IMG/VR virus record: IMGVR_UViG_3300037483_000299 | Location: 1 to 64,000 of that record | Source: a virus | Direction: 5' to 3' (one strand) | DNA length: 64,000 nucleotides | In this document: positions 1-59,910 of the stretch, piece after piece | Layout: each line of letters starts with the position of its first letter | Position numbering within the stretch: the first letter of the stretch is position 1 | Made by a program: the position numbers and the translations under genes | Notes under the pieces: generated by a model | Databases searched by the model: none | Told to the model about the DNA's origin: nothing | Seen by the model: the letters and a program-made list of their open reading frames with translations, nothing else

Positions 1-201
1 AGTGCCACCACGCATAGTGCCATCGTGCCGGGCACCAAGTTGACCGGTGGGGCGGCGGGAAGCGCGATGCCCTCGACCGCACTCGGGAGTTACATCCTCG
101 GCCGTTCACTCAGTATTCTGGCGGCCAACGCCACCGGCATCATCACGATGCTCATTACTCATCAGGGTGCCGGCTCCACGGGTGCCGGTCCGTCCGCGTA
201 A
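1..201 (+). CDS. Capsid cement/decoration protein, C-terminal part (truncated by window edge)
   Basis: Frame 1 is open to TAA at 199-201 (SATTHSAIVPGTKLTGGAAGSAMPST...GRSL...GIITMLI); directly upstream of the major capsid gene; DUF2190-like pattern. Confidence 0.6.
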   Translation, partial: SATTHSAIVPGTKLTGGAAGSAMPSTALGSYILGRSLSILAANATGIITMLITHQGAGSTGAGPSA

Positions 202-216
202 GGAGGCGCGACTACC

Positions 217-1197
217 ATGAAGCCACTCGTCATCCGCAAGTCGCAGCCGACCTATACGGAAGTGCATATCGACACGCCACTCACCACCATGTCGGTGGCG
301 TTCGCGCAGGCGGCTGATTCCTTCATCGCGGGCCAAGTATTCCCCCGCGTGCCGGTAGACAAGAAATCCAACAAGTACTTCACCTTCCCGCGTGAGTACT
401 TCCTAGCCAACCATGCCCAGAAATGGGCGATTGGGACGGCCGCCGCGCGGTCCGGCTATCAGATTTCCAACGACAGCTACGAGGTCGAGCGGGAAGGGCT
501 AGAGACAGCGATTCCTGACGAGAATCGGGACAACGCTGACGCTGGGCTCAACCTCGACCGTTCTGGAACGGAGTTCGTGACGGCCAACCTATTGGTTGCC
601 GTCGAGGTCAACTTCGTTTCCTCGTTCTTCGCGGCCAGCATCTGGGACAATTCGATCACGCTGTCCAATGGAAAGTGGAATGACGCCAACTCCGATCCCG
701 TGACCGATATCAAGGGCATGAAGCGGACGGTCCGGGAGAATACCGGCCAGGAGATGAATACCGGCGTCTTCGGCCGGCTCACCTTCGACCGCCTCACTGA
801 GCACCCAGACGTGATCGACCGGATCAAGTATTCGGCCGGTCCGGGGAATCCCGCCATCGTCAACCGCCAGACCTTGGCGCAGTTGTTCGAGCTTGAGCGG
901 GTATTCGTTGCCAATGCTACCCGGAACACGGCAGCGGAAGGTATCACGCCGAGTTACGACTTCGTGGCTGACGAGGATGCGGCCATGCTGGTGTACGCGG
1001 CTCCTCGGCCGGGCATAGAAGTTCCGTCTGCCGGGTACACGTTCACTTGGCGCGGCACCGGGAACAACATGGGCCTGGAGTTCGACCGCTACCGGGAGGA
1101 CAAGACCAGGTCTGATGTGATCCGGGGCGGCCTCTGGTATGACCACAAGGTCGTATCGGCCGCCCTCGGCTGCTTCAACGCCGACGTGGTGGACTAA
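217..1197 (+). CDS. Major capsid protein, module A (lambda gpE-like)
   Basis: 326 aa, RBS AAGGAGG; IDTPLT..SVAF, FIAGQVFPRVPV, W.DANSDPVTDI, PSAGYTF motifs typical of gpE-like capsids. Confidence 0.85.
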   Translation: MKPLVIRKSQPTYTEVHIDTPLTTMSVAFAQAADSFIAGQVFPRVPVDKKSNKYFTFPREYFLANHAQKWAIGTAAARSGYQISNDSYEVEREGLETAIPDENRDNADAGLNLDRSGTEFVTANLLVAVEVNFVSSFFAASIWDNSITLSNGKWNDANSDPVTDIKGMKRTVRENTGQEMNTGVFGRLTFDRLTEHPDVIDRIKYSAGPGNPAIVNRQTLAQLFELERVFVANATRNTAAEGITPSYDFVADEDAAMLVYAAPRPGIEVPSAGYTFTWRGTGNNMGLEFDRYREDKTRSDVIRGGLWYDHKVVSAALGCFNADVVD

Positions 1198-1449
1198 ATG
1201 GCCTTGCTGGCGACGCGGGCCATGCAGTTGGCTGGCCATGAGGTGCAGCCCGGTCAGGCCGTAGATGGGCTCTGGCCGGATCTGCGCGAACGGACCCGGC
1301 GGGCGCTGCTGAATACCCGTCGGGTTGTACAGGACGAAGGGGAAGCGGTGATGCCGGTCGGGGAACCCGCCCCGGCCGTGGTCGAGGTGGTCAAGCGCAA
1401 GCGCGGCCGGCCTCGGAAACACCCACTCCCGGAGGCCAGCAATGGCTAA
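1198..1449 (+). CDS. Small post-capsid protein with AT-hook-like KRGRPRK tail
   Basis: 83 aa, abuts the capsid stop; a common gene type after phage capsid genes. Confidence 0.6.
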   Translation: MALLATRAMQLAGHEVQPGQAVDGLWPDLRERTRRALLNTRRVVQDEGEAVMPVGEPAPAVVEVVKRKRGRPRKHPLPEASNG

Positions 1450-2116
1450 GGGTCGGTACGTCGGCAAAGGGGGCCTGTACGGGTACGGCTCCATCGTCCA
1501 GGTCCATTCGGTCACGTCCACGGCGACCGTCCTGCCCAACTGGGGGATGGTGTCGTTCGGGAACGTTGCGGCCAAGACCTGGCGGATGAAGGACCCGCTG
1601 CCCGGTCAGACTGTCGTGCTCTACTGCAACGACGCGGCTGGCGGGGCGCTCCAGACGGTCAAGACCTCCTCCACGCACAGCTTCATTTCTCCGGGCGGCA
1701 CCCGCACGAGCCTGATCTTCTCCGGGGACAACCAGACCGTGACGCTGATGGGCCGCACCACGGCGGTCTACGAGGTGCTGGCCTCGGCGCGGGATGGGGT
1801 GACCACGGTTACCTCCACCGCGGTCAAGTTCCCCACCGAGGGCGTGGTCTCCTTTGGCGCTACGGGTGCCAAGTCGTGGCGGATGCCGCCTCCGATGGCT
1901 GGTCAGCGGCTCACGCTCTACTGCAACGATGGGGCGACGGGCGCGATCCAGAAGGTGTTTGCCAGCACGTCGAACGCCACCAACTTTGCCACCACGGGTG
2001 GTCTCAAGAACGTGGCGCAGTTCGACCACGACCACGAAAGCCTGGTGTGCCACGCCCTGAGTTCGGCGGTTTGGGCCATCAGTCCCAACGCGAGCATCAC
2101 GTACAGCACCGCGTAA
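1442..2116 (+). CDS. Putative capsid decoration protein with internally duplicated beta domain
   Basis: Two ~95-aa repeats (VTST..P..G.VSFG...AK.WRM..P..GQ...LYCND). Confidence 0.6.
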   Translation: MAKGRYVGKGGLYGYGSIVQVHSVTSTATVLPNWGMVSFGNVAAKTWRMKDPLPGQTVVLYCNDAAGGALQTVKTSSTHSFISPGGTRTSLIFSGDNQTVTLMGRTTAVYEVLASARDGVTTVTSTAVKFPTEGVVSFGATGAKSWRMPPPMAGQRLTLYCNDGATGAIQKVFASTSNATNFATTGGLKNVAQFDHDHESLVCHALSSAVWAISPNASITYSTA

Positions 2117-2142
2117 CCCTTCACCCGAAAGGAGCAAGGCCG

Positions 2143-3159
2143 ATGCGAGGCCCTGTTCAGCCCGTAGTACCGGAAACCGTCGTGAGCGAAGCGGAGCCCA
2201 ACGGGGGTGGCGCATCCACCCCCAAGCGGCGCCGCGGCCCTAATCGGATCAAGAATCTCCTGCCCCCGGAACCCGTGACGCGGCGATCCAAGGTCGCCAT
2301 CATGGGCTACACGGAGCATCGGAAGTACGCCCCGTTCCTCCATCCAGACTGGGAAATCTGGGGCTTGAATGACTTGTACCACGAGTTGCCGGACGGCTTG
2401 ACGCTCGACCGGCTGCGCTGGTTCCAGATCCACGAATGGACGGAACAAGGACTCCGACCCGAGAGCCCGACGGACTTTCAGGCGGGGCCGCCACATCCGC
2501 GCGATCCGAACCACGTTCCCTGGCTCAAGGAATGGTCGGCCAAGGGGATGCGGCTCTACCTGCTGGATGCGCGCGCGGAACTTCCCAACGCTACCGTGAT
2601 GGACCGTGAGGCCATCTTCCGCTACTTCGAGGACGGGACCGGCCACCCGATTCGCTACTTCACCAATAGCATCTCCTGGATGCTGGCCGTTGCCATCATG
2701 GAACTCGCGCCCGATCATCAGGCGGTTGCGGGTGCCGAGATAGGCATCTTCGGCGTAGACATGATGATGGCCGGCGGCCCGGGCAGTGAATACGGGTGGC
2801 AGCGGCCCTCCTGCGAATGGCTCATCGGCTGGGCTCGGGGAGCGGGCATCACCATCCATCTGCCCAAGGAATCCGATCTCCTCAAGACGGCGTTCCAGTA
2901 CGGGGACAAGCAGGGCGAGTACTTCCGTAAGCGGGTCCAAGCTTACCGCAACGAGATGAGCCGGCGGCGCGGGGAAGCGGATGGGGCGATAGAGCAAGCC
3001 AAGGCTGCCCATCACGAGTTGACTGGGGCGATCAACTGCGCCGATTGGATACTCAAGAGCCACATGCCGAGCGATCCGGGGGAACCAGGACCGGGTCGGG
3101 TGCCGGTGCCGGATAGCCACAAGGGGTTGCCGACTGGGGTTACGACCCCGGAGGAGTAA
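2143..3159 (+). CDS. Maf/MptE-like (sialyltransferase-type fold) putative glycosyltransferase
   Basis: ATG 2143 after AAAGGAG; KVAIMG, WEIWGLN, RWFQIH, YFTNSISWMLAVA, IGIFGVDM, EY.WQRPSCEW motifs; C-terminal coiled coil. Confidence 0.55.
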   Translation: MRGPVQPVVPETVVSEAEPNGGGASTPKRRRGPNRIKNLLPPEPVTRRSKVAIMGYTEHRKYAPFLHPDWEIWGLNDLYHELPDGLTLDRLRWFQIHEWTEQGLRPESPTDFQAGPPHPRDPNHVPWLKEWSAKGMRLYLLDARAELPNATVMDREAIFRYFEDGTGHPIRYFTNSISWMLAVAIMELAPDHQAVAGAEIGIFGVDMMMAGGPGSEYGWQRPSCEWLIGWARGAGITIHLPKESDLLKTAFQYGDKQGEYFRKRVQAYRNEMSRRRGEADGAIEQAKAAHHELTGAINCADWILKSHMPSDPGEPGPGRVPVPDSHKGLPTGVTTPEE

Positions 3160-3160
3160 C

Positions 3161-3544
3161 ATGGCGAAGGATCGCGTCATCACGACCTGGGGGCCACATG
3201 CCCTCGCGACGCTGACCGGCACCACGGCGGCGGCGGAAACGGCCACCGCCTGGCATCATCTCGGGCCGGCCCTGGCCAACCGGATGTACTTCAAGGCCCG
3301 GTTTTCCGCGGCGGGGGTCATCAAGACGAGTGCGGGGAACCGGCTCACGGTGCGTGGGGCATTGGCCCCAACGAGCGGGGACATCTCGACGGCGCATACT
3401 ACGACGCTGGTGACCCGCACCAGTACGAATCAGGCCACGCAACTGGCTTCGACTGTGGCGCTCATGTTCAACTTCCTGCGGGTGGAGAGCACTGCCCTGG
3501 TCAGCGGGATCGCGGCGGACTGCTTTGTGTCGGCCATCCCATGA
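3161..3544 (+). CDS. Thr/Ser-rich putative virion protein
   Basis: 127 aa, RBS GGAG, within the head-neck operon. Confidence 0.55.
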   Translation: MAKDRVITTWGPHALATLTGTTAAAETATAWHHLGPALANRMYFKARFSAAGVIKTSAGNRLTVRGALAPTSGDISTAHTTTLVTRTSTNQATQLASTVALMFNFLRVESTALVSGIAADCFVSAIP

Positions 3545-3602
3545 CCTACTGCTGGGGTGGGGTCTGGGTCTGGCACGGGCCGCTAGTCGGGAGTGAAACC
3601 CG

Positions 3603-4040
3603 GTGAGCTGGACGTACAGCGGAGACCCGGCGTCGTCGAATACCGACGCGGTGCGCTTCCTCTGCGGTCAGACCTCGACTGCGGATTCGGTGCTCTTGGC
3701 GGACGAGGAACTGAGTTACCTCATTGCCCAGACGCCGACGGTCAACTATGCCGCCGCGCGGGCCTGCGAGAGTCTGGCGAACCAATACGCTACGCGGTTG
3801 GCCGAAGGCGAAGCGGTTGGACCGTTCAGCGCGGAATGGGGAGATCGGGCCCAGAAGCTCCAACAGCTCGCTAAGGCGTTGCGGACACAAGCAGGCTTCA
3901 GCGTCACGCCGTTTGTCGGTGGGAGTCGAGTAGCGGACCGGGATAGCCGGGTGGACGATACCGACCGCGTGGCCGATCAGTTTACGGTGGGCATGATGGA
4001 TGAACCGGGGAGTATCCAGACGGAGACGGAAAGCACATGA
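3603..4040 (+). CDS. Head-tail adaptor (connector) protein
   Basis: MSWTYSGDP..DAVRFL.G.T....LL.DEE motif; position. Confidence 0.75.
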   Translation: MSWTYSGDPASSNTDAVRFLCGQTSTADSVLLADEELSYLIAQTPTVNYAAARACESLANQYATRLAEGEAVGPFSAEWGDRAQKLQQLAKALRTQAGFSVTPFVGGSRVADRDSRVDDTDRVADQFTVGMMDEPGSIQTETEST

Positions 4041-4375
4041 CGCTCTGGCGCACGCTCGCTGGACAGTTGAGTCAGACGGCGACGCGGAACGCCTTTGCGG
4101 GCTACAACAGCCGGGGCGATCCGAGTTTCAGCACGTCGGCGACAACGTTCCCTGTGCGCGTGGCCGGCAAACAGGGGCTCACGAAGGGGCCGAGTGGGCG
4201 TGACGTGCTGTATCGGCAAGAGGTCTATGTCGGGCCGAGCAGCACGGGCGGGACGCCGAACTTCACCGTCCAGGATCGGGTCACGCTACCCGATGCCACG
4301 ACGCCCCCGATTGTGAACGTGGGGACATTCCCGGAACGCAGCGGGGTGAGTTTCCAGGTGCTCTACTGTGGCTGA
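4037..4375 (+). CDS. Head closure protein
   Basis: 112 aa, ATGA-coupled; DRVTLPD motif; synteny. Confidence 0.7.
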   Translation: MTLWRTLAGQLSQTATRNAFAGYNSRGDPSFSTSATTFPVRVAGKQGLTKGPSGRDVLYRQEVYVGPSSTGGTPNFTVQDRVTLPDATTPPIVNVGTFPERSGVSFQVLYCG

Positions 4376-4892
4376 GATCCTGAGTCTCACGATGACGGGC
4401 GATGCTGCCTTGCTGGCCAACTTGGAGAAGCTGGCCACCGGCCAGAACCTCGCTATCGAGCGCGGCTTATTCCGCTGGGGCGAGGAAGTCATGGCCGAGT
4501 CCAAGACTCAGTACGTGCCGGTGGATACCGGCGCCCTTCGCGCCTCAGGGTTCGTGATGACGCCAAGCCTGCGGGACGTTCCCCCAGGAGCCGTGCCGAG
4601 CCCGGAAGCGATGACGGCCATGCAGCCCCGGACTCAGGATGAAGTTGTCGCCGTGCTGGGCTACGGCGGCCCAGCGGCCCCCTACGCGCTGGCGGTGCAT
4701 GAGAACCCGCGCTCCGGCAAGACGGGCGGTGTCTCGCCCCAGGGTAAGCGATACAAGCACTTCGCCCGGGTGGGGCAGTGGAAATACCTAGCTATCCCGG
4801 TGCAGAACCATGCGAGCCGGTTAGCTGAAGTGGTGGCGACCGAAGTCCGGGCGTTCATCGCGGGGTTGGGGCAGCGTGGCCGAACTCGTTGA
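4368..4892 (+). CDS. HK97 gp10-like neck protein
   Basis: VPVDTGALRAS, YALAVHE, KYL motifs. Confidence 0.8.
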   Translation: MAEILSLTMTGDAALLANLEKLATGQNLAIERGLFRWGEEVMAESKTQYVPVDTGALRASGFVMTPSLRDVPPGAVPSPEAMTAMQPRTQDEVVAVLGYGGPAAPYALAVHENPRSGKTGGVSPQGKRYKHFARVGQWKYLAIPVQNHASRLAEVVATEVRAFIAGLGQRGRTR

Positions 4893-5298
4893 TGATGTCA
4901 TTCGACGCCTCAGTACGCAGGGCGTCGGGACCACGAGCAGCACGGCGACCTGGCGTATTGTGGCGCGGGATTTCTTGCCGGGAACCATCGGCTCGAGCAG
5001 TCAGGCGAAGATGATTGCCGTGACGGTGACCGGAGGATTCCCGCAGATGAGCGCCGAGGACCTGACCTATCCGACGTTCCAGGTCCGGGTCCGGGACTCC
5101 GCCACGAGTAGCACGGGACTGGAAGCGAAGATGACGGCGACGGTGACGGCACTGAATCTCACGGGCGGGCTGACGATCAACAGCCGGAAGTATCTGGATT
5201 TCCGGCTTGAGGGTGAGCCGTTCTTTCTGGGACGGGATGAGAACCAACGACCGCTGATGGCTGCGAACTTCGTGGCGTGGCGGTCCCGGACGACGTAA
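4876..5298 (+). CDS. Tail terminator/completion protein
   Basis: PTFQVRVR and LGRDENQRP...ANF motifs; precedes the tail tube gene. Confidence 0.75.
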   Translation: MAELVDDVIRRLSTQGVGTTSSTATWRIVARDFLPGTIGSSSQAKMIAVTVTGGFPQMSAEDLTYPTFQVRVRDSATSSTGLEAKMTATVTALNLTGGLTINSRKYLDFRLEGEPFFLGRDENQRPLMAANFVAWRSRTT

Positions 5299-5308
5299 GG
5301 GAGGCAAC

Positions 5309-5731
5309 ATGGCGACGAATGCGTTTAACGGCCGGCTCATCCGCTGTCAGGTAGCGGCCACGTCCAGTGGGTCGCTGGTGAGTTTCGGTGGGCTTCAGGG
5401 CGCAACCCTAACACTCGACCGACCGGAAATCTCGGTGGTGCACCAGGACACGTCCGGCTGGGAACAGACCTTGGCGGGGATTGCCAAGTGGACGGTACGG
5501 GCTCGGACGGTACATCTCTCGACGGCGGCGACTCAGGAACAGGACACGCTCCGGGCGGCGGCCCTCGCGGGCACGCGCAAGTGGTTTGCCTTCATCAGCA
5601 GCACGTCAGCCGGTGGGCAGACGTGGAAGGGGAATGGCTACGTCTCTGGGTTTGACCTCGACGGCGACCAGACCTCACCCGTGATGCACAACTTTAGTGT
5701 GGCCGGGGACGGCGCGATTACGGAGTCCTAA
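5309..5731 (+). CDS. Tail tube (major tail) protein
   Basis: 140 aa; D.SGWE..LAG...W and KGNGYVSGF...FSVAGDGAI sipho tail tube pattern. Confidence 0.8.
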   Translation: MATNAFNGRLIRCQVAATSSGSLVSFGGLQGATLTLDRPEISVVHQDTSGWEQTLAGIAKWTVRARTVHLSTAATQEQDTLRAAALAGTRKWFAFISSTSAGGQTWKGNGYVSGFDLDGDQTSPVMHNFSVAGDGAITES

Positions 5732-6051
5732 TGGCGACGCTGCAACTGAACGGGACGAGCTACACGCTGGCCTACAAGCCGTGGGGAGTGATCCGCCGGC
5801 TTCACAAAGAGCAGGGCGTCAATCTCCTCGACTTGCTGGGGGATGAGCAAGCCGCAGATCGGATGATGGACCCGACGACCTTGAGCGCCCTAGTCTGGGG
5901 GGGATTGATCCATGCCCACCCGGAGATGACCCTGGAACAGGTAGAGGGCTGGATGGGGTTGGACAATCTCGCAGTGGTCTCTCAAGCCGTGGCGGGCGCG
6001 ATCAAGGAAAGCCTGGAGGGAGCAGGGGTCGCCGCAAACCCTACGACCTGA
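5731..6051 (+). CDS. Tail assembly chaperone (gpG-like)
   Basis: Between tail tube and tape measure; slippery site near the 3' end. Confidence 0.75.
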   Translation: MATLQLNGTSYTLAYKPWGVIRRLHKEQGVNLLDLLGDEQAADRMMDPTTLSALVWGGLIHAHPEMTLEQVEGWMGLDNLAVVSQAVAGAIKESLEGAGVAANPTT

Positions 6052-6236
6052 TCCCACGGCTGGAACGCGCAGCGATGCGTGCGGGGCTGCGTCCGTGGGA
6101 GGTTGCGCGATGCAGCCCCGGTGACTTGCTCGGCTGGTGTCAAGCGCACTACGGGGAGGACGCCCCGGATGACGGGATGAGCCAGCAGGCGAAGGCGGAC
6201 GAACTGATGCGGAGGCTGCGTGGCCCAGGTCGGTGA
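6036..6236 (+). other. -1 programmed frameshift site A-AAC-CCT and gpT-like extension
   Basis: XXXYYYZ heptamer AAACCCT 6036-6042 in the correct phase; the -1 frame reads YDLIPRLERAAMRAGLRPWEV... to TGA 6234-6236. Confidence 0.75.
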
Positions 6237-7668
6237 TGTCTTGATGACGGCGCGGGCGGATGTCGGACAGGCGAAGCAAGCCTTCCGCTCCCTCCAAGCC
6301 GATGTCAAGCAAGCCAGCGCCGACTTCAAGGCCGGGGTCATCTCCATTGGGGATTACCAGACGGCTATTCGTACGGCCCGACAGGAAGCCATCAGCCTGC
6401 GATCCGCCGGCTTGGCTCCCGTCGGTCGGGAACTCTCGTCATTTAGTCAGGTCATGGTTGCTACGACACCGCGCATTGAAGGGGCGCGGCGTGGGTTGGG
6501 GACGCTCCGCGGTGCGATGGTCGGGCTGGCGGGTTCGATGGTTGGGGTCCGTGGCCCTCTCAATGCTCTCGTTTCTGGGCTGCTGTTGTTCGGCACGGGT
6601 GGGGCGATTGGGGCGGGTGTCGCCGCCGGGCTGGCGGCCTTGGCATTCGGCTTCAACAAACTTCGCCAGGGGGCCAAGGACGCAGCCGAAGCGGTGAAAA
6701 CGTATGCTGATGCGTGGCGAGCTTTGCCGGAACAACAGAAGGTACAGACGGCTGCGGATCTTGCCAAACTACAAGCACAACAAGCCGACATCAACTTGCG
6801 GCTAGCGCCGCTCCTTGAGAGTCAACGTCAAGCAAAGGCTGGCGGGATTGCTACGCCGGCCCTGAACAAGCAGATCGAAGAGCTCCAAAAGAAGTTTATT
6901 GAGGTTAGCACGGCTGTCGCTGGGGCGATGCAAAAACTCAGCGGCTTCCGAGAAGATGTTGCGAAGACCGGCACCACGGTGCGGGAAGCCCTCTTGCCGC
7001 CTCTGGAAGACATCCAACGGGACCTAGACCGTTGGAACGCGAATCTCCGGCAGCAGGCTGAGGCTGTGAAAGACGCGCTTTCACCCCTACGAGAATACGA
7101 ACGGGCACTAGAGAGCCTGCGTGAATTGGAAGCCTTAGGGCTCATCGGTCATGAGGAACGCCTTGCACGCGGGGATCAGTTACGCCGCGCCGCCTCGGAC
7201 GTCGGTAAGCCCATGTTTGCCAGTACCAAGGCACAGATCAAGGCTGAGTTTGATGACCTCGGCTTGACCGCAGCGGGCGCGTTTACCCGAGGCTTCATCC
7301 GCTCGGCCTTCGAGGGCTTCAAGGGATTCGGCTCGGTGCTCAAGAACGTCTTCGCCTCCCTGTTTGAGGACGCGTTGATGCAGGCGCTTCGACGGCTCGG
7401 TGGTGGTGGCGGGGGGAGTGGGATACTCGGATTCCTGTTCAATACCGGTGTTGGGTTCGCTACTGGTGGGCCAGCGGGCGCGGCCATTGGGGGAGCGGCC
7501 AGCATTGGTATTCGACCCCCGGGCCCGCCTGAGTTCAGCGGTATGAACATCAACGTCGGCCCGGCCCGTGATCCGATCAGCATTGCCCGGGATGCTCAAT
7601 GGTTGGCCGCTCTCGCCGCGTCGAATCTTCAGCTTGAGGCCGGCGGCTTCCGGTTGGCGAGGCGCTAA
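6220..7668 (+). CDS. Tape measure protein (short, 482 aa)
   Basis: Ala/Gly-rich helical protein with hydrophobic segments; follows the chaperone. Confidence 0.8.
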   Translation: MAQVGDVLMTARADVGQAKQAFRSLQADVKQASADFKAGVISIGDYQTAIRTARQEAISLRSAGLAPVGRELSSFSQVMVATTPRIEGARRGLGTLRGAMVGLAGSMVGVRGPLNALVSGLLLFGTGGAIGAGVAAGLAALAFGFNKLRQGAKDAAEAVKTYADAWRALPEQQKVQTAADLAKLQAQQADINLRLAPLLESQRQAKAGGIATPALNKQIEELQKKFIEVSTAVAGAMQKLSGFREDVAKTGTTVREALLPPLEDIQRDLDRWNANLRQQAEAVKDALSPLREYERALESLRELEALGLIGHEERLARGDQLRRAASDVGKPMFASTKAQIKAEFDDLGLTAAGAFTRGFIRSAFEGFKGFGSVLKNVFASLFEDALMQALRRLGGGGGGSGILGFLFNTGVGFATGGPAGAAIGGAASIGIRPPGPPEFSGMNINVGPARDPISIARDAQWLAALAASNLQLEAGGFRLARR

Positions 7669-8855
7669 TGGCCAAGTTCGGGAACGCCGCGATTCTCTGG
7701 ACCTCGACGGAAGATGCCAATACGTCGCGCGTCTTCCTATTGGATCAGCCGTTAGTGGAAGTGACACCGCACCACAATCAGACCGTCTACCGCCGGGAGT
7801 CGCTGGATCGCTCTGCCGTGGAGACGTACAGTGTCGGCAGTGGTGCCTATGAGCTGACCGGCACCATTCGCTACTCCGCTGACCCGGATGGCCTGACGGA
7901 GATGCTGAAGGCCGGAAGTCAGGGCAAGACACTGACCTACATTCCCAACCTGAACGACATGGCGTTGCAGAACAACGTGATCTTGATGGACCCCATGAGC
8001 CCCACGCAAGCGACCCTCGACGCGCAGCGGGGAGGCTATGCCGAACATCAGGTGTCGGTCCGGTTCCGCAAGACGGATGAAAGCCCGTTCACGGGACAGG
8101 TCAAGGGGACCGATGTGATCTTCGCCTATCGGGCAGGCGGGAGTCTCAAGCACGGCGTGGCGACGGCGACGTTCTCCCGCGTCACCAGCACGAGCGCCCC
8201 GGCGAGTTACGCCAGTATCTCGACCGGTGATCTCGGATTCGGCACAATCAGCACCGCGGCAACCAACAAGGCGCGGGTGAGCTGGATGGCGAATCCTACT
8301 AGCGTGGGGCCGCGCACCTTCCCGACGTTGCTATTGGAGCCCAGCCGAAAGAATCGGTTGCCCGAGTCAGAAGATTTCTCCGCGTGGACGCAGTCCGGGG
8401 CTGTGACGTTGACCACCGGACAAACGGACCCGATGGGGGGCAGCAGGGCGACTCTGATAGCCGACAACCTGACGACGGGTAGTGCGAGCGTCTACTACCC
8501 GCTCGGAGCGTCGGACATCCTCTCAACGTTTGCCGTCTACTCGCTCTTTGTCCGGCAGGGCACCACGGTATCCACCGCCGGATCGCGGCTCTCCATTGCT
8601 AATTCCACCGGGGGGAATCTCTCGGCCGTAGACCTGACCTGGAGTAGTGGTCTCCCCGTGACCTCGGTCGTGGTTGGGGCGCTGGCCGGGCCCGTTGAAC
8701 GGTGGCGCGGCGGATGGTATCGGGTGGCCCTCCGCCCCACGGCTGCGCTCACCACGGGCATTGGTGGCACCATCCGCTTTTTCATCAATCCGGCGATTGG
8801 ATCGGCAACGGATCGCGGGGATATCTACGCCTACGGCGGGCAGGTGGAACAATGA
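7668..8855 (+). CDS. Distal tail-like protein with C-terminal beta-sandwich domain (first half of a split domain)
   Basis: Follows the tape measure; LLLEPSRKNRL..SEDF, GGWYRV, DIYAYGGQVEQ motifs. Confidence 0.65.
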   Translation: MAKFGNAAILWTSTEDANTSRVFLLDQPLVEVTPHHNQTVYRRESLDRSAVETYSVGSGAYELTGTIRYSADPDGLTEMLKAGSQGKTLTYIPNLNDMALQNNVILMDPMSPTQATLDAQRGGYAEHQVSVRFRKTDESPFTGQVKGTDVIFAYRAGGSLKHGVATATFSRVTSTSAPASYASISTGDLGFGTISTAATNKARVSWMANPTSVGPRTFPTLLLEPSRKNRLPESEDFSAWTQSGAVTLTTGQTDPMGGSRATLIADNLTTGSASVYYPLGASDILSTFAVYSLFVRQGTTVSTAGSRLSIANSTGGNLSAVDLTWSSGLPVTSVVVGALAGPVERWRGGWYRVALRPTAALTTGIGGTIRFFINPAIGSATDRGDIYAYGGQVEQ

Positions 8856-9085
8856 CGCGCGTTCTCGGGTGCCTTGGGCTCCTACTCCTGACCGGGTGCT
8901 ATGTCCGTACCCTTCATGAGCCCGCGCTGTGCGGCGACGTGCGGATAGATACGGTGAGCACGATTTTCGTCAACGGTCAAGCGGCCGGGGTGGTCACACA
9001 AGAGACGTGTCTACTCTGGGTGGCGTTCAGTGATTCCACCCAATGTTGGAACCGCGACGGCGAACGGCTGGCGCAATGTCCCTGA
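8852..9085 (+). CDS. Small Cys-rich lipoprotein
   Basis: ATG 8852 overlaps the upstream TGA; signal peptide MTRVLGCLGLLLLTGC with lipobox. Confidence 0.7.
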   Translation: MTRVLGCLGLLLLTGCYVRTLHEPALCGDVRIDTVSTIFVNGQAAGVVTQETCLLWVAFSDSTQCWNRDGERLAQCP

Positions 9086-9099
9086 CCGTGGCGGAATAG

Positions 9100-9636
9100 A
9101 TGACCAAGGTCGCCAGTAGCTACATGCGGACCAACGGCGCGGCGCTGACCAGGGCGGCGGATGTGCTGTCTTGGACAAACGTAATGGGAAGACCACAGGC
9201 GCTCACTGTCTATCTTCGGTTTGTAGACTCTGGCGTTGTTCGGCAAACGGCTGGTGCGACCGTGCTTGCTATTGGTGTAGATCCAGCAATTAGCGTGCGC
9301 GAGGCTTCTGGGGTGTGGGCCGCGGTGCATTCTAACGGGACGGCGAACGTCACTGGGTCTGCATCTGTGGCAACGAATACCGGCGACCTTGTCGAGCTGG
9401 TCATCCAGGTGAGTACGACAGGGACCGTGACGGTGATTCAATCCCTCAATAGCGCGACGGCAACAACCGGATCAACCAGTGGTGCGCTCAAGTTCGGGAC
9501 TGCGTGGAGCGTACCAACACTGTCGCTAGGGTCTAATGTCAGCGGGGCAAACCAAGCCTTGGTTGCCATCCGCAATGTACTCGTTGCGCGTGGCGTCCAA
9601 ACCCTCGCTACCATGCGGCGGCTGGCGGGGACATGA
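9100..9636 (+). CDS. Tail protein, LamG/lectin-like (second half of the split domain)
   Basis: Begins ASSYMRTNGAALTRAADVL, the motif that normally follows GAQxE within one protein. Confidence 0.65.
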   Translation: MTKVASSYMRTNGAALTRAADVLSWTNVMGRPQALTVYLRFVDSGVVRQTAGATVLAIGVDPAISVREASGVWAAVHSNGTANVTGSASVATNTGDLVELVIQVSTTGTVTVIQSLNSATATTGSTSGALKFGTAWSVPTLSLGSNVSGANQALVAIRNVLVARGVQTLATMRRLAGT

Positions 9637-12038
9637 GCGCCAAAGCCTATACTGTCTACGTCTACAAAAGCACCGCGCCGGATACGAGTACCAGTCACGT
9701 CGCGTTCACGCTCACCAACTCCCGGCTCCTCGAAGCGCCGACGGTGCGGCGGCCCCTCATCCGTCCCCTCTATGGCCGGTCGGAATCCCAGCCGTGGTAT
9801 GTGGACGTGCTCGATGTGGGGTCCAGCTTCTCGGCCTTGCTCGCGTCGAGCGGCCGCTATGACAAGCTCGGCCGGCTGCTACAAGTCCGGGTTGCCAAAG
9901 ACTCGTCTACCGCCGTCAAGCTAGGCACGGGCCGCATCACCAACTACGAGTTGCTGTCGGACGTGGCCGGCTATCGGGTGACGGTGGAGGATGAGCGCAC
10001 CCTGGAACGGCAAACCAACATCTTTACCACCAACACGACCCGTCTCTATCCCGGTGGGGTCCACGCGGTCTATGGGCCGTTCAAGCCTCCGGCCGGGGTA
10101 CGTCATGATTTGCGGGCGAGCACAGCAAGTGCTCAATGGCGGCGCATCCAATGGACGATCTTCAACCAGGCGTTGAGCGAGTCGGTCTTCGCGGCCTTGG
10201 GTGAAGATCTCCAACCGGGGATTGACCAGCCCGAACAAGCGATCCGCACGGCCAGTACCGTCACCGGTCTCTTTCGGTACGCTCGTGTCCGCATTGGGGC
10301 GACGGATTACGTCATCCGCAACTTCCCAGCGCCCGATAAGACCAACTACGACGACTACAATCAAGACCCGCTCGCGGGGATTGACTACGCCCTCGGGCAA
10401 AGCGCCGGCAAACTCCCCCCGCTCCTCGCCTGGATTGCCGCAAGTTCGACGGTGAGTACGGGGGGGACCAATGCCTTCCTGCATATGATGGGCGCCCCGC
10501 CGTCACTCTTGACCCCGCTTCACATCGGGGGCAAGACCGGGCGTACGTTGCAGGACACCATCGCGGCGATCTACAACGGCGACTATTCCAGCTCGGGGGC
10601 AAAACTTCCCCGCTACTCGACGGCGGCCCTCGACGCCTTGCCGAAAGACGTACGAGTCCGGTATCGGATCACCGAACCGACGGACATGAGTCAGTGGCTT
10701 GAGGATCAGGTCTTCATGCCGCATGGCTTGGTGCCCAGCGTCAACACTGATGGCCAGATCATCGTCAAGCAAACCTTCTGGCCCGGCTCAACGTCTGCCA
10801 TCACCTACAGCTACACGGGGGCGAATCTCGCCGAGCATCCGACCTGGAATCACCAAGGCCGAGAGCAAGTAACGCGGGTCAAGGTCAGGTACACGGTGGA
10901 GTCCTTCATTCAGGCGAAGACCCGTATTCTCGGCTCGAACACAGTGAAGGCGGGTTTCCCCGGCGAACCTCTGAGCGACCTGAGCGGGGCGGCAGACCGG
11001 ATTCTAGCGAAGGAGCAGACCTTCTCCGTCACCCATGACATTTCCACCCGATTCCAACCGCGTGAAGTGGAACTCCTCGGGTTCGGATGGCATCGGTCTG
11101 TGACACCGAATCCCGTCAATGCGGATCAGGATCAGGTGGCGATCAAGAACGGCGTGAAGTATGGGCGCGAGTTGCTGAACCGCTTTGGGGACGGGCCGGT
11201 GTACGGTTCATTGATCGGCCTCACCTCAGCGGAATCAGTCGAGCAGGGCGATTGGGTCAAGGTAACGCTGGGTACGTATCCCAACGCCTCAGTGCCTGGC
11301 CGGGGTGGTAACCGATTCGTCCAGATCTTCGGCCGCACGGATCAACCCGACGGGCCCACGCATGACTACCTCGACGGTGGGCCCGCCAACAATCCGCTGA
11401 CGAGCCCGAGCATCACGCTCTCGACCAGTACGGCCGACAGTCGGCATCAGCTCCGGGCGACCATCGGCTCGATTACCGCGGGCGGCTATGCCGAGTGCCA
11501 ATTAGCCGCGAGCAGCACCACGCCCGCTGCCACATCCACCAAATGGACGGCCGCCTTCACCACGGATACCACGGGCATCACGTCGATCAATCAACGTGCG
11601 TCGGGAACCAAGTACTACGGCCGGGCCCGGAACCAACACATCAACCGGATCCCCTCGGCGTGGGTGGTCTCGACAGGCAAGACCACGGCGAGCCTCACGG
11701 CACCGTCTGGGCTGGGCTCCACGGGCATCAACGGGGCGGGCTTCACTGCGCTGTGGAGCATCGGCACGGTCGGCTACCCGTTAGAGATGTTCATTGACAC
11801 CAGCACATCGGCGGCGTTCAGCACGGCCAACCTACTGGCGCGGTTGCCGGTAGGCGCCACCCGGCATGTGGTGAGTGGGGGTCTGGCCTTGGACACGACA
11901 TATGCATGGGGCGTCCGGCACATTGATCTCTACGGTGGAGCCTCAACGGCTCCTCGGGTAACGTTCGCCACGTCTACCGTGGCACCGGTAGCACCGACCA
12001 TGCTCGGGCTGGAAGCTCTTTTGGTCGGACCATACTAA
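9633..12038 (+). CDS. Large tail tip/hub protein with C-terminal FN3-like domains
   Basis: 801 aa; GTKYYGRARN and DTTYAWGVRH FN3-like strands; position. Confidence 0.7.
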   Translation: MSAKAYTVYVYKSTAPDTSTSHVAFTLTNSRLLEAPTVRRPLIRPLYGRSESQPWYVDVLDVGSSFSALLASSGRYDKLGRLLQVRVAKDSSTAVKLGTGRITNYELLSDVAGYRVTVEDERTLERQTNIFTTNTTRLYPGGVHAVYGPFKPPAGVRHDLRASTASAQWRRIQWTIFNQALSESVFAALGEDLQPGIDQPEQAIRTASTVTGLFRYARVRIGATDYVIRNFPAPDKTNYDDYNQDPLAGIDYALGQSAGKLPPLLAWIAASSTVSTGGTNAFLHMMGAPPSLLTPLHIGGKTGRTLQDTIAAIYNGDYSSSGAKLPRYSTAALDALPKDVRVRYRITEPTDMSQWLEDQVFMPHGLVPSVNTDGQIIVKQTFWPGSTSAITYSYTGANLAEHPTWNHQGREQVTRVKVRYTVESFIQAKTRILGSNTVKAGFPGEPLSDLSGAADRILAKEQTFSVTHDISTRFQPREVELLGFGWHRSVTPNPVNADQDQVAIKNGVKYGRELLNRFGDGPVYGSLIGLTSAESVEQGDWVKVTLGTYPNASVPGRGGNRFVQIFGRTDQPDGPTHDYLDGGPANNPLTSPSITLSTSTADSRHQLRATIGSITAGGYAECQLAASSTTPAATSTKWTAAFTTDTTGITSINQRASGTKYYGRARNQHINRIPSAWVVSTGKTTASLTAPSGLGSTGINGAGFTALWSIGTVGYPLEMFIDTSTSAAFSTANLLARLPVGATRHVVSGGLALDTTYAWGVRHIDLYGGASTAPRVTFATSTVAPVAPTMLGLEALLVGPY

Positions 12039-12508
12039 TGGCCTTCCCAACTGGCCTCGTTCAATCGGACGGCTTCGCCGAATCCGGGATCATCTTGGGG
12101 CTCAATCCGTCGAGCGACCGGAGCTTTGACATTCGGTTGCAGCGGCAGGATACGGGGACGACGTGGGGGAGCATTCAAGTCTGGCAGGGTAATAGTTACA
12201 ATGGCGCCTTCCAGTATCGGGATCTTCTGAAAAACGATGGGCTCCGCCGCGACTATCGGGCCCGCCATGAGAAGTCCGGCTACACCGCAGGGGCGTGGAC
12301 GGATACGGTCAGCGGGGGGCCGATTCTGTTATCGGATGGGGATGCACCACAGATGCCCTTGAGTCGCCGGCCGATTAGCCTCCCGATTCTCTTGTCCACG
12401 GCGGCATCGGTACGCTTTGGGAATACGACCGGGGCGGGCCTGTCCGTCTCTGGTGGACAGCTTGTCGGGCGGAGTGCCACGGGCAGCGAAACGACGCTGA
12501 CCACCTAG
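12038..12508 (+). CDS. Tail protein, FN3-like
   Basis: DYRARH..GYT.GAWT FN3 end motif; last gene of operon A. Confidence 0.55.
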   Translation: MAFPTGLVQSDGFAESGIILGLNPSSDRSFDIRLQRQDTGTTWGSIQVWQGNSYNGAFQYRDLLKNDGLRRDYRARHEKSGYTAGAWTDTVSGGPILLSDGDAPQMPLSRRPISLPILLSTAASVRFGNTTGAGLSVSGGQLVGRSATGSETTLTT

Positions 12509-12519
12509 CTTGGGATATT

Positions 12520-12951
12520 CTACCAGCCGACATATACCACGATCCATCGGGAGCCGGCATTCATGGGGTAGCCGCCCCTTATGGAATCTGCTTTAGGTAG
12601 AGGAGGTATGCGTTGTTCGAGGGTAAGTAGATGCGCTTCGCTCACTCCATACTGATCGTAGTCGTAGTACCACCAGCTCATGGTCCGCCCATGTCCGCTT
12701 TCCTGGATCTCGACTTTTTCGGGTGTCCCGTTGTGAGCAAGAACATCGCAGGCGTCCCAGTGGACGCGGGGGATGAACCGTTCGTATGGGCCCAGGGTCG
12801 CCTTGAGGCTATCCGCCCGCGCTCGAACAGTAGACTCCACACATCCCAACCACATGAATGCTTGCGGAGGAATTACTCCCAGGCCATCACCGGGCCGGGC
12901 GGTAGGGGCACAGGCGGTAAGTAGGACCAGGAGCGTGAGCGCGTACCGCAT
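12520..12951 (-). CDS. Lipoprotein, BamE/SmpA-like fold (candidate superinfection exclusion)
   Basis: ATG 12951 coupled to the methyltransferase stop; MRYALTLLVLLTAC lipobox; VLAHNGTP...SWWYY motif. Confidence 0.65.
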   Translation of the reverse strand: MRYALTLLVLLTACAPTARPGDGLGVIPPQAFMWLGCVESTVRARADSLKATLGPYERFIPRVHWDACDVLAHNGTPEKVEIQESGHGRTMSWWYYDYDQYGVSEAHLLTLEQRIPPLPKADSIRGGYPMNAGSRWIVVYVGW

Positions 12952-13679
12952 CAGGTTGTCTTCTGGAAGACCCAGGTCGGGTAGGGATCGCAGAGCGAAG
13001 CCGGAAGCCCGACGGCGGTCAGTAGTCGGTGCCGGAGATGGGTCCGCTCTGGCACCAACATCGCCCCGGGAAGGTGCCGGCGCAGTTCGTAGTACCCGAC
13101 GCCTCGCCAGCCGCTTGAGGCCCACGGCCGATCCTGCCGGAACCGCAACCGCCAGATCGCGTGGCGCCGCGCCAGGCCCGACGGAAGCCAGTGGTTGAAC
13201 CACAGACCCGTCGTATGTAGGTCCCTGGGGTAGTACTTGTTCGGTGTCTCGTTGATGATGAGATGCCCGCCCGGACCCACGACCCGCCAGATTTCCCGTA
13301 TCCACAGTGCCCGTGGCTGGGGGATGTGCTCAAAGACCGCGTTGGCGAGGACGACGGGGAAGCGTCCATCGGAGAACGGGAGGGCTCGGGTGTCCGGGAC
13401 GTGGAGTAACTGAACAACCCCACGCTCCACGACGTCACGGAGTAATTCATCTCTGCGGGCCACCCGGCGTTCATCGACTTCCACTCCGATGACCTGGGCG
13501 GCGCCGTGCTCTAACAGGACGGCGGCCGAGAGGCCGGAAGCGGCCCCGTAGTCGAGGACGATCTGCCCCCTGAACAGGTGTGCCCAGTGACGCAGCGTCT
13601 CCCGGAGAATGTGATAACGATTCTCCTCAGTAGGGTCCGGTGCGGCATAGCGCAGTCGCGGGCTAACGACTGTCGGCAT
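12951..13679 (-). CDS. Class I SAM-dependent methyltransferase (Methyltransf_11-like)
   Basis: VLDYGAASG, LPFSDGRF, AVFEHI, RVVGPGG.LII.ETPN; likely start MPTVV at 13679. Confidence 0.85.
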   Translation of the reverse strand: MPTVVSPRLRYAAPDPTEENRYHILRETLRHWAHLFRGQIVLDYGAASGLSAAVLLEHGAAQVIGVEVDERRVARRDELLRDVVERGVVQLLHVPDTRALPFSDGRFPVVLANAVFEHIPQPRALWIREIWRVVGPGGHLIINETPNKYYPRDLHTTGLWFNHWLPSGLARRHAIWRLRFRQDRPWASSGWRGVGYYELRRHLPGAMLVPERTHLRHRLLTAVGLPASLCDPYPTWVFQKTT

Positions 13680-13782
13680 TGTTCCGGTACGAATCAACGA
13701 GGACCCGTCCAGCAATGCCGGCGAGGCTGTAGAGGACGAGACCGAGAGCCAGAACAACGCCAGCGCCGATGAGGTATTCCAT
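13663..13782 (-). CDS. 39-aa single-TM protein (not in the ORF track)
   Basis: MEYLIGAGVVLALGLVLYSLAGIAGRVLVDSYRNNADSR*, with RBS AGGAG upstream. Confidence 0.6.
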   Translation of the reverse strand: MEYLIGAGVVLALGLVLYSLAGIAGRVLVDSYRNNADSR

Positions 13783-13810
13783 GAGGTGCTCCTGGTGTCA
13801 GGTACTAGAT

Positions 13811-13899
13811 ATGATGCGCGATTCCCGTGCCCGGAACAACTACCACTAGTGGTAGTGCGTAGACGCCACACTACCAAGCGGCCGGCTGACGGGTAGAAT
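13811..13899. promoter_or_regulatory. Divergent promoters with an 18-bp palindromic operator
   Basis: Minus strand TTGTTC-17-CATCAT; palindrome ACTACCACTAGTGGTAGT 13839-13856; plus strand -10 TAGAAT 13894-13899; conserved at 59799-59910. Confidence 0.65.
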
Positions 13900-13941
13900 G
13901 CCGGGACCGGGGGGCCGGACGAATACGGAAGGGAGTCGCCG

Positions 13942-14301
13942 ATGGAGTCGTCGCGTGGTGTGTGGCTGGACCCCGGGATGGGGCCGAACGGAGAGTTTGC
14001 CGTCTCCATCGTGGACAGCCGCGGTGACCGGCTGTTGGCGGGGTTCATCCCGAACGGGCGGGACAAGGACTTCTTCATCCGGGAGTACTACGCGCTCCTG
14101 GACCGCATTGACCCCGTTCGTGGCCAACGGTCAAGCCTTCCGCTTCTTACGGGGCTTCTCCGCCGGCCCGCTGGCCCGACCGCGCGGCTGCTTCAGCTCC
14201 ATCCGTGCCGCGGCGTCGGTGAGCCGGTCCACCAGGAAGACGGCATCTCGCCTCTGCCGGAACCGCCGGGCTTGCTCCAGGAGGGCCACGGCCCCGGCTA
14301 G
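13942..14301 (+). CDS. Hypothetical protein converging on and overlapping the repressor gene
   Basis: RBS GGAAGGGAG; first 11 codons (MESSRGVWLDP) conserved at 59953. Confidence 0.5.
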   Translation: MESSRGVWLDPGMGPNGEFAVSIVDSRGDRLLAGFIPNGRDKDFFIREYYALLDRIDPVRGQRSSLPLLTGLLRRPAGPTARLLQLHPCRGVGEPVHQEDGISPLPEPPGLLQEGHGPG

Positions 14302-14598
14302 CATGGTGTCGGCCGGGTCCGCCCCGGACTGAGTCGCGCTGACCGTTTTAAGCACCTTAAGCAGTATCTCCCACTGCTCCTCGTCCCACTCGAACGCCCC
14401 GCGGGGTAGGCCAAGCGCCAGTTCGAGGTGACGGAGGCTGGGGGCGGTCGTTCCCCCGTCTTTCTTCCAGCGGCTCAGGGTGTCCGAGCGGATGCCCCAG
14501 GGCTCCAGCGTCACAGCCTTCAGCTGCAACACCTCGAGCGCGGCATCCAGTCGGGCCGCGAAATCCCCCGCCATCCCGGCAGTCTTGGCTCCTGCCAT
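14131..14598 (-). CDS. Putative cI-like XRE/HTH repressor
   Basis: FAARLDAAL...GIRSDTLSRWKK...PSLRHLELALGL HTH pattern; divergent from the early operon. Confidence 0.6.
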   Translation of the reverse strand: MAGAKTAGMAGDFAARLDAALEVLQLKAVTLEPWGIRSDTLSRWKKDGGTTAPSLRHLELALGLPRGAFEWDEEQWEILLKVLKTVSATQSGADPADTMLAGAVALLEQARRFRQRRDAVFLVDRLTDAAARMELKQPRGRASGPAEKPRKKRKA

Positions 14599-14606
14599 CT
14601 TGTCGC

Positions 14607-14662
14607 TTGACAGACTAACGCCCCTTCCCCCATACTTGGCAAGCGCAAACGGATTCGTTTGC
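14607..14662 (+). promoter_or_regulatory. Rightward early promoter and candidate operator
   Basis: TTGACA 14607-14612, 18-nt spacer, CATACT 14631-14636; inverted repeat GCAAACG-N4-CGTTTGC 14645-14662. Confidence 0.6.
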
Positions 14663-14692
14663 CGATGCCAACACCACCGGGGGCCTAAGTCA

Positions 14693-14947
14693 GTGTCAGA
14701 CAACGATATAAGCCCGCCCAACACTACGTCATCGCTCGACAAGCGGCAAGAAGCCCCGCGGCGGGACATCGTGGGCGGCTCGGTAACGTCGGACGAGCGG
14801 ACCCGCATCCTGGGTGCCTTCGAGCAAGCCGGGTTCCGGACCATCTCTGAGGGCGTCCGGGTGATCTGTCTCGCCCACGCCGACTCGGCCGCAGTCCGTG
14901 ATGCCGTCGCCGCGTGGCGCCGTGCCAACCCTGCTGAAGCTGCCTGA
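14693..14947 (+). CDS. Cro-position small DNA-binding protein
   Basis: First gene after the promoter (GTG 14693); short beta-helix-helix pattern. Confidence 0.4.
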   Translation: MSDNDISPPNTTSSLDKRQEAPRRDIVGGSVTSDERTRILGAFEQAGFRTISEGVRVICLAHADSAAVRDAVAAWRRANPAEAA

Positions 14948-14951
14948 CGCC

Positions 14952-15404
14952 ATGTCCCACCCTTTCCCTGCACGCAGCGTGGGGCGCCGAGTCGCCCGCA
15001 TCAACTACCCCCGGGGCAATCCGGTAGAGGCGTGCGCCCTGGCGTGGGGGATTCAGCCCTCGAGCGCGGCGCAGCGGTTGAAGCTCACGGCCCCGGAATG
15101 CCCGTGGAGTCAGGCGGCGCTCGGGACCGAGGCGTTGATCCGGGCCGGCCATCCGGTACGAGCTGAGGCGTTGTGCCTGCCGCTCGATCTGGTGCGGGTA
15201 ACGCTCGGCGAGCCCGCAACGGTGGAGGCGTTCGACCGGGCGCGGGAGACGGAAGCGATCCGGGACGGCGAAGAAGATGTGGCCCAGCAGTTCATCCGGG
15301 ACCGGGCGTCGTTCGAGACGTGGGAGAAGCGGACGCTGGCACATATCGCGGCGGCGCTCCGGGCGGTGAAGCTCGGCCGGGCCGTGTACGGGCGGGTCGC
15401 ATGA
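14952..15404 (+). CDS. cII-position regulatory protein (hypothetical)
   Basis: ATG 14952; its last ~20 codons survive as a remnant at 60829-60888. Confidence 0.45.
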   Translation: MSHPFPARSVGRRVARINYPRGNPVEACALAWGIQPSSAAQRLKLTAPECPWSQAALGTEALIRAGHPVRAEALCLPLDLVRVTLGEPATVEAFDRARETEAIRDGEEDVAQQFIRDRASFETWEKRTLAHIAAALRAVKLGRAVYGRVA

Positions 15405-20475: not shown

Positions 20476-20563
20476 TCGCCCGGCTTCTCTGGCTCGCGTG
20501 CGTGCTCCTGGCGTGTGGCTGCTGCCTGCCGCTCCTGGGGGCGCGCCCGCCGGACGGTGAGGC

Positions 20564-59798: not shown

Positions 59799-59910
59799 AG
59801 GATGCGCGATTCTCGTGCCCGGAACAACTACCACTAGTGGTAGCCGTAGACCTACCACTAGTGGTAGGGCAAAATGCGAGACTTCCGAGCCCCGCGTTCC
59901 GGGGTAGAAT
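59799..59910. promoter_or_regulatory. Second copy of the divergent promoter region, with two palindromic operators
   Basis: Minus strand TTGTTC-17-CATCCT; CTACCACTAGTGGTAG at 59828-59843 and 59852-59867; plus strand TAGAAT 59905-59910. Confidence 0.65.

Follow-up and report, generated by a model that had tools for sequence, protein, structure and literature searches.

Virion module and enzyme gene

The virus record IMGVR_UViG_3300037483_000299 is 94,089 bp long, and the stretch analyzed here, hereafter the window, is its first 64 kb. A co-directional virion module of the siphovirus type occupies positions 1–12508 of the window. Within it, a gene at 2143–3159 encodes a 338-residue protein, referred to below as the enzyme, which its predicted fold and gene linkage mark as a candidate cytidine monophosphate (CMP)-nonulosonate:protein O-glycosyltransferase. 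Our subject is this enzyme and its family, the pathway for nonulosonic acids (nine-carbon relatives of sialic acid) encoded elsewhere in the record, and a short motif, Ser-Thr followed by Ala or Gly (S-T-A/G or ST[AG]), in the virion proteins encoded around the enzyme. A megablast search of window 1–12508 against 50,697 deposited phages returned no match.

All genes of the module lie on the plus strand. The first (1–201) is the 3′ end of a gene for a decoration-like small head protein containing ‘PSTA’ and ‘GSTG’, whose 5′ end lies off the record start. In a relative, G001, its reading frame is longer, runs off the contig end and is preceded by protease-/scaffold-like frames, as judged by eye. 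In locus L004, the small gene that immediately precedes the capsid gene matches this open reading frame (ORF) at 50% identity; in many loci this slot is occupied by family c8, to which we liken the ORF by slot alone. Next come the lambda gpE-like major capsid protein (217–1197; phrog_1005, E-value 1.4e-80; a weak PF03864 match), which has no ST dipeptide; an 83-residue protein lacking a family match, with a relative at the same place in locus L003 (1198–1449); and a 224-residue protein, here called protein X, predicted to consist of a tandem ~110-residue β-sandwich domain and matching the profile of family c3 (1442–2116). The enzyme gene follows, with an ATG start and AAGGAG upstream. An earlier reading of this DNA, made from the sequence alone, had placed the gene inside the head-neck operon, and the gene does have the major capsid gene on one side and those for adaptor, terminator and tube on the other.

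Downstream of the enzyme are a 127-residue protein (3161–3544) that has no family match, a Ser+Thr content of 24% and four ST dipeptides, including ‘ISTA’ and ‘ESTA’; a head-tail adaptor-like protein (3603–4040; phrog_1732) with ‘QTSTA’ near its N terminus; a 112-residue neck protein (4037–4375; family c4, or g4037) with ‘PSSTG’; a tail-completion or Neck1-like protein (4368–4892; phrog_5) that has no ST dipeptide and serves as an internal control; and the tail terminator (4876–5298; PF12691, E-value 7e-9; family c2), with ‘SSTAT’ and ‘SSTGL’. The tail genes continue with the tube protein (5309–5731; PF06199, phrog_1407; ‘LSTAA’), a tail assembly chaperone-like protein (5731–6051; phrog_2115), the tape measure protein (6220–7668; phrog_167), a 395-residue distal-tail protein with seven ST dipeptides, four of them ST[AG] (7668–8855), and a 178-residue tail protein with orthologues at the same place in loci L002, L004, L007 and L014 (9100–9636). 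An 801-residue tail-tip or central fiber protein (9633–12038), whose ST dipeptides include seven STA and three STG, and a 156-residue protein with ‘LSTAA’ and orthologues in L002 and L007 (12038–12508) end the tail block. The Ser-Thr strings that the sequence-only reading had listed in these proteins are all present, with 20 ST dipeptides in the tail tip, two in the tape measure and none in the capsid protein or the chaperone.

A nonulosonic-acid pathway on the same phage genome

The sugar genes lie outside the window, in the last part of the record (74.6–94 kb), in a stretch that starts with genes for the large terminase (74638–76032) and a Mu-type portal (76017–77756), both on the plus strand. 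Further on, the minus strand encodes a GNAT acetyltransferase (85113–85595), a member of the CMP-sugar synthetase family (85824–86495; PF02348, E-value 1e-21), a PIG-L deacetylase (86752–87309), an ATP-grasp protein (87860–88780), a DegT aminotransferase (88669–89649) and a PseB-type dehydratase (89610–90488), and the plus strand encodes a formyltransferase (90541–91233), a NeuB-type synthase (91799–92650; E-value 1e-55) and a MuF-like head protein (92969–94021). Judged by these assignments, the island between the portal and MuF genes holds a complete-looking pathway of the pseudaminic/legionaminic type, with tailoring enzymes. Near it, record 84134–84478 (L086 134–478) encodes a 114-residue protein of 28% Ser+Thr with three ST[AG] sites and six ST dipeptides where 2.1 are expected, which may be a further acceptor or a piece of a fiber.

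The record appears to be composite. Two early/regulatory regions, at window 13813–30689 and at window 59801–64000 continuing to record 73990, are colinear and 78–100% identical. Moreover, a second virion module unrelated to the first, module B, occupies window 38177–58619; it includes a capsid-size gene (44631–45611; 326 residues) and has no homologue of the enzyme. Two colinear early regions combined with two unrelated virion modules indicate that the 94-kb record is either a chimeric assembly or a tandem of two related phage genomes. The relative G001, at 49,908 bp, carries only one of the two sets of early and virion regions. Its reverse complement is colinear with record 609–15405 and then jumps to 74829–94089, and its final 127 nucleotides are identical to record positions 1–127. 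The end of the record is joined to its start by ~1.4 kb that holds the protease-/scaffold-like frames, recognized by eye in the translation, and the start of the decoration-like gene. From this colinearity and the 127-nucleotide overlap, we place the sugar island and the enzyme gene on a single phage genome of ~50 kb.

This linkage recurs among relatives. The enzyme occurs in more than 556 viral contigs, and pathway linkage was examined in 15 long ones, of at least 35 kb. NeuB was found in 14 of these 15 and so was the CMP-synthetase, whereas each was found in none of 16 enzyme-less contigs of at least 24 kb that carry a related capsid gene (36–42% identity). Of the 15, the four rated 100% complete all have NeuB and all have the CMP-synthetase; neither gene occurs in any of the six enzyme-less contigs that are at least 90% complete. 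One enzyme contig, G015 (L098, L101), carries a pair of neighboring NeuB-like genes, of which one contains an in-frame TGA, and in G014 NeuB is interrupted by TAA; such copies may be in decay or recoded.

The enzyme family and its fold

The enzyme has no match in Pfam or PHROG. Searches of metagenomes gave 407 homologues of 190–420 residues, all of them lacking a name or a Pfam domain. An alignment of 38 homologues has blocks typical of an enzyme (KVAIxGF, WEIWGLN, WFQIH, YFTNSISWM, GVDM, SEYGxQRPSCE and SDLLK), in which H97, H124, Y172, N175, E216, R221, S223 and E225 are invariant and D206 nearly so. The family is represented in the viral contigs of IMG/VR counted above and in only 16 contigs of metagenome-assembled genomes (MAGs) among 185,579 prokaryote species, and its distribution suggests that it is essentially phage-specific. 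A tblastn search of deposited phages found one distant homologue, 30% identical, in Microcystis phage Mvi-Yong1342-1 (PP496355.1; L082 7902–8705). That gene lies next to the small terminase gene, just before it, and not next to the capsid gene; its annotation as a ‘type 11 methyltransferase’ is probably wrong.

The AlphaFold model of the enzyme has a mean predicted local distance difference test score (pLDDT) of 77.5, rising above 90 through most of the core. The model consists of a Rossmann-type core of the Maf/GT42/MptE fold (residues ~48–250), a long C-terminal helix (259–307) and a conserved Pro/His tail. The closest relatives alone share a disordered, basic N-terminal extension (‘PKRRRGPNR’; window 2143–2280). 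At the other end (window 3040–3159), the helix leads into the conserved ‘MPGD...G..P.P..HK’ tail, whose role is possibly procapsid docking or oligomerization.

Foldseek searches of the PDB with this model returned CstII first and then CstI (E-value 1.2e-2, probability 0.93 for 2x61). An independent VIA-align search of 48,161 chains placed CstI of family GT42 at the top (2p56; Z 8.8, 158 residues aligned, root-mean-square deviation (rmsd) 3.7), followed by residues 271–499 of Maf (5mu5; Z 8.3, 155 residues, rmsd 3.4) and the MptE HPPK (8sd5; Z 8.0, 139 residues). The next matches were SteA, thiamine pyrophosphokinases (Z 6–6.5) and GT29 sialyltransferases; DUF115 and MptE-like proteins were among the weak matches in a viral structure library. 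All top structural matches fall in one fold class, and we therefore assign the predicted enzyme a Maf/GT42-type fold, the similarity being moderate. The nearest named neighbor in the ESM Atlas is likewise MptE-like (score 0.80), the remainder being unnamed viral clusters. In the part of the ORFs that was scanned, the gene context of the enzyme consists of the nonulosonic-acid pathway and virion genes, with no pterin genes.

The sequence-only reading had called the enzyme Maf- or sialyltransferase-like, which the fold comparisons bear out and sequence profiles do not, so that placement with Maf or CstII is by fold alone. Across the 38 homologues, a hidden Markov model (HMM) scan touched PF01973 in two (E-value 0.042) and PF06002 in one (E-value 0.006). 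The enzyme also departs from the three-domain layout of Maf, having 338 residues compared with 590–700 in Campylobacterales Maf reading frames. A single-sequence search of the PDB found no match. Profile-based matches to OprM and tektin were set aside as coiled-coil noise from the C-terminal helix.

A conserved position next to the capsid gene

One gene order recurs with four unrelated capsid families (phrog_1005, phrog_10, phrog_267 and phrog_371): capsid, usually one small protein X, enzyme, and then adaptor and neck genes. Protein X, too, is lacking from 49 capsid relatives that have no enzyme, and in these the adaptor homologue, where detected, mostly lies within a few hundred bases after the capsid gene.

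The X slot is held by several families, the commonest being c3 (28 loci, three capsid families), whose profile the protein encoded at 1442–2116 matches with an E-value of 3.2e-24 (hmmsearch). By hhalign, c3 has no match to c20, c22, c27, c44 or c25, and the sole related pair is c22–c27. As most X families have no detectable common origin, we discarded the idea of ‘X plus enzyme’ as one conserved cassette and see in it a conserved slot.

In the protein X of the window, each ~110-residue repeat opens with ‘VTSTA’, and the c3 alignment has a conserved [ST][ST][AG] where the domain begins and ST[AST]xW close to where it ends. The model of the C-terminal domain (pLDDT >80) places the motifs at strand ends and in coil. 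This model resembles XD-type domains of phage tailspikes and fibers (Z 9.6–10.8) and the capsid spike of Pseudomonas phage Pa223 (Z 7.8), a likeness that fits protein X being a capsid fiber or spike, and the modeled protein is a prime candidate for an acceptor.

An S-T-A/G motif in virion proteins encoded with the enzyme

The sequence-only reading had taken the Ser-Thr clusters of these proteins for evolved acceptor sites. Compared with shuffled sequences, the tail tip alone is clearly enriched in ST (20 seen, 7.4 expected, p<0.0005); the signal is marginal in the terminator and in the protein encoded at 3161, and the remaining proteins are at expectation. Pooling the 16 structural proteins gives 52 ST seen and 30.9 expected (z 4.3), with TS, SS and TT at expectation. 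An excess over composition holds for the tail tip, for pooled ST and above all for S-T-A/G, but generic Ser-Thr clusters mostly follow composition. STA is first of all 8000 tripeptides in the virion module of the window (20 seen, 3.55 expected, Poisson p 1.5e-9), and the runner-up reaches only ~3e-4. ST[AG] occurs 28 times in the module, with 6.6 expected, and these 28 sites are encoded by 23 different codon strings, which argues for a signal at the level of protein and not for a DNA motif. In module B of the same window, used as a control, STA is at expectation (3 seen, 3.9 expected). The DNA motif AACGTCAACA has no exact copy in the window, nor any near the enzyme gene.

The excess follows the enzyme across loci. 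In 70 other enzyme loci STA is 3.2-fold enriched (361 seen, 112.5 expected), as against 0.56-fold in 37 enzyme-less loci (28 seen, 50.1 expected; Mann-Whitney p 2e-15 against the enzyme loci). Among 608 distinct neighbor proteins from the other loci, STA ranks first (271 seen, 81 expected, p 1e-61); STG comes second (219 seen, 69 expected, p 7e-47), and the flanks preferred by the motif are G/N/Y/A before and A/N or T/W after. Taken singly, the four capsid lineages have excesses of 2.9- to 4.1-fold. Within G001 and four complete genomes (43–64% GC), the excess is found in the region of virion genes with the enzyme, and scattered smaller excesses occur elsewhere.

Enrichment differs between families. 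STA is 10-fold enriched in the terminator family c2, 5.4-fold in the decoration-like family c8 and 5- to 20-fold in several tail families; among X families it is 4.8-fold in c3, 4.6-fold in c22, 8.2-fold in c20 and 1.0-fold in c27, and absent from c44. The scan of neighbor families found no enrichment in the portal, the scaffold/protease, the Neck1-like protein or the enzyme itself, and 26 homologues of the Neck1-like protein contain no STA where 1.1 are expected.

Orthologues allow a direct comparison. Adaptors encoded with the enzyme contain 21 ST[AG] sites in 3355 residues, and those encoded without it none in 3679, at similar Ser+Thr contents of 16.6% and 19.0%, respectively; the frequency of the motif is therefore not equally high in relatives without the enzyme. 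The neck family c4 has 12 sites with the enzyme and none without, and capsid proteins have 0.25 and 0.07 sites per 100 residues. A search with the tail-tip protein found one close relative as its sole match, and the tail tip thus stands outside this comparison with enzyme-less orthologues. We rejected generic Ser-Thr richness as an acceptor mark, because proteins encoded with and without the enzyme have similar Ser+Thr contents.

In family alignments, the motifs fall at a few variable, loop-like positions or at termini and shift between homologues; in the terminator family c2, STA recurs at three loop-like positions. Judged from these alignments, the sites are probably not buried, which agrees with what an acceptor role would ask of them.

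Discussion

The phage described here probably attaches a nonulosonic acid to virion proteins of its own. The observations behind this reading are the fold of the enzyme, its linkage to the sugar genes, its conserved position beside the capsid gene and a motif enrichment that is present where the enzyme is encoded and missing from the controls. Late in infection, the phage would make a modified sugar of the pseudaminic or legionaminic type with the genes between portal and MuF (record 85.1–92.7 kb) and activate it as a CMP-sugar. The phage-specific 338-residue enzyme would then transfer this sugar to Ser or Thr residues of S-T-A/G motifs exposed on the fiber-like protein X, the decoration-like head protein, the adaptor, the terminator, the tube and distal tail proteins. 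The outcome would be an acidic sugar coat on both head and tail. We infer the donor sugar, the transfer reaction and the accepting residue, as well as a biological benefit, which could be shielding, stability or adhesion. The sequence-only reading had likewise envisaged a sugar coat on tail and decoration proteins at Ser-Thr acceptors; our results support the coat but narrow the acceptor to S-T-A/G, and not to any Ser-Thr cluster.

More broadly, we lean, if only slightly, toward the view that S-T-[A/G] is a true O-glycosylation sequon, recognized by a new family of small, phage-specific CMP-nonulosonate:protein transferases. In this view, uncultured phages by the hundreds, spread over four or more unrelated capsid lineages, use a pathway that they encode themselves to coat head fibers, neck and tail with an acidic sugar akin to sialic acid. 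If so, it would be the first case of sequon-directed protein glycosylation with a nonulosonic acid described in bacterial viruses.

The pathway and the enzyme could instead remodel the host surface (flagellin, pili, lipopolysaccharide or capsule), for example to act against superinfection, and leave the virion unmodified. It is generally known that Maf acts on flagellin and GT42 enzymes on lipooligosaccharide, and the Microcystis phage homologue, which precedes a small terminase gene, would also suit a role at the host surface. Prophage genes are further reported to tailor the nonulosonic acids of Acinetobacter capsules (PMC12053666, PMC6586298). We nevertheless think such remodeling quite unlikely, because the enzyme gene lies within the late head-neck operon by the capsid gene in four capsid lineages, because the S-T-A/G excess is found in the phage’s own exposed virion proteins and is absent from orthologues encoded without the enzyme, and because the family is nearly absent from bacterial genomes.

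Glycosylation of the virion by this enzyme must also be weighed against several facts that count against it, among them that the system is known from sequence and predicted structures, with no cultured representative. Some of these facts concern the enzyme, which might be no glycosyltransferase but an MptE- or thiamine-pyrophosphokinase-type enzyme, a sugar-tailoring enzyme or a head-assembly factor, with any transfer carried out by another protein. Z scores of 8–9 are barely above the usual background of the aligner, the fold class also holds pyrophosphokinases, and the MptE HPPK and thiamine pyrophosphokinases score nearly as high as CstI and Maf. Moreover, PF01973 and PF06002 do not match the enzyme, an hhalign comparison of its family with 12 Campylobacterales Maf domains gave a non-significant probability of 0.15, and no mapping of catalytic residues was obtained. 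Set against this, CstI and Maf, which head the fold matches, are both CMP-nonulosonate transferases, and the enzyme co-occurs with NeuB and the CMP-synthetase yet sits by the capsid gene, away from the pathway genes. In addition, the scanned proteins of the record include no other recognizable glycosyltransferase. A protein of another function therefore seems to us unlikely.

Other facts concern the motif, whose excess might be a lineage or structural trait, such as a β-sandwich or fiber motif, linked to the enzyme by phylogenetic coincidence. The conserved ST[AST]xW, which is possibly structural, accounts for some of the STA signal in protein X; the enzyme-less control loci form one fairly tight clade of 36–42% identity and are not phylogenetically independent; and genes in the loci were called simply as the longest ORFs. 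Such a coincidence would, however, have to reproduce the excess in each of four unrelated capsid lineages and in many unrelated protein families, at positions that shift among loops instead of keeping to fixed structural columns, and it would have to account for adaptor orthologues that differ by 21 motifs to none at similar Ser+Thr content and for a module B without enrichment. We regard it as very unlikely.

If virion glycosylation by the enzyme is correct, its closest parallel is Maf-dependent flagellin glycosylation, which the system would resemble in operation, although the enzyme lacks the sequence and architecture of Maf. Maf proteins (for example Magnetospirillum Maf, 5mu5) have the same central Rossmann-type fold; both are genetically tied to a pseudaminic/legionaminic-type synthase and a CMP-synthetase, and both are presumed to O-link a sugar to Ser/Thr of a self-assembling surface protein. 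In contrast, Maf has ~640 residues with flanking domains, about twice the length of the phage enzyme, which is without them. The two share no HMM or profile-profile similarity, and the phage enzyme is phage-specific, with virion proteins as presumed acceptors and an S-T-A/G motif; we know of no strict sequon for Maf. CstI and CstII of Campylobacter jejuni (GT42, PF06002) are the best structural match, although the phage enzyme has no PF06002 match, and the order of motifs in the phage enzyme (‘TNS...GVDM’) is presumably akin to that in CstII (‘TSG...GIDF’). GT42 enzymes sialylate glycans, not proteins.

Short acceptor motifs have precedent in the Bacteroidota, where the O-glycosylation sequon D-(S/T)-(A/I/L/V/M/T) is enriched in exposed proteins. 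That sequon is likewise short and centered on Ser/Thr with a small residue next, but enzyme class, sugar and compartment differ, and the phage S-T-A/G sites have no preceding Asp. Among phages, to our knowledge, virion glycosylation has been shown only for a few mycobacteriophages and with ordinary sugars, which conventional transferases take from host sugar nucleotides. In a literature search, no account of phage virions glycosylated with nonulosonic acids came to light. As in mycobacteriophages, the modification proposed here would be phage-encoded and directed at the phage’s own capsid and tail proteins, and a candidate transferase is present. The phage described here differs in the predicted sialyltransferase/Maf fold of this protein, in a complete-looking pathway of its own that leads to an acidic nine-carbon sugar, and in S-T-A/G motifs that lie internally on many proteins. 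Mycobacteriophage glycans, by comparison, are located, according to the summary of Freeman et al. 2023 in PMC12619734, at the C termini of capsid and tail tube subunits.

A widespread, self-contained system of this kind would alter the view of phage surfaces, from their charge and stability to how they adhere to mucus or biofilm and evade recognition by hosts or animals. It would also offer a compact transferase of ~250–340 residues with a three-residue acceptor motif for glycoengineering, and would give a functional annotation to a large family that has no Pfam model.

Short segments shared between two parts of the record

Two short segments, window 55121–55461 and 57565–57808, are 89% identical to record 77750–78089 and 79641–79884, respectively, linking the tail end of module B with the stretch that follows the portal gene in the other phage. 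The shared segments include the start of a polysaccharide-lyase-like gene (record 79613–80638) and may represent an exchanged receptor-binding or depolymerase module.

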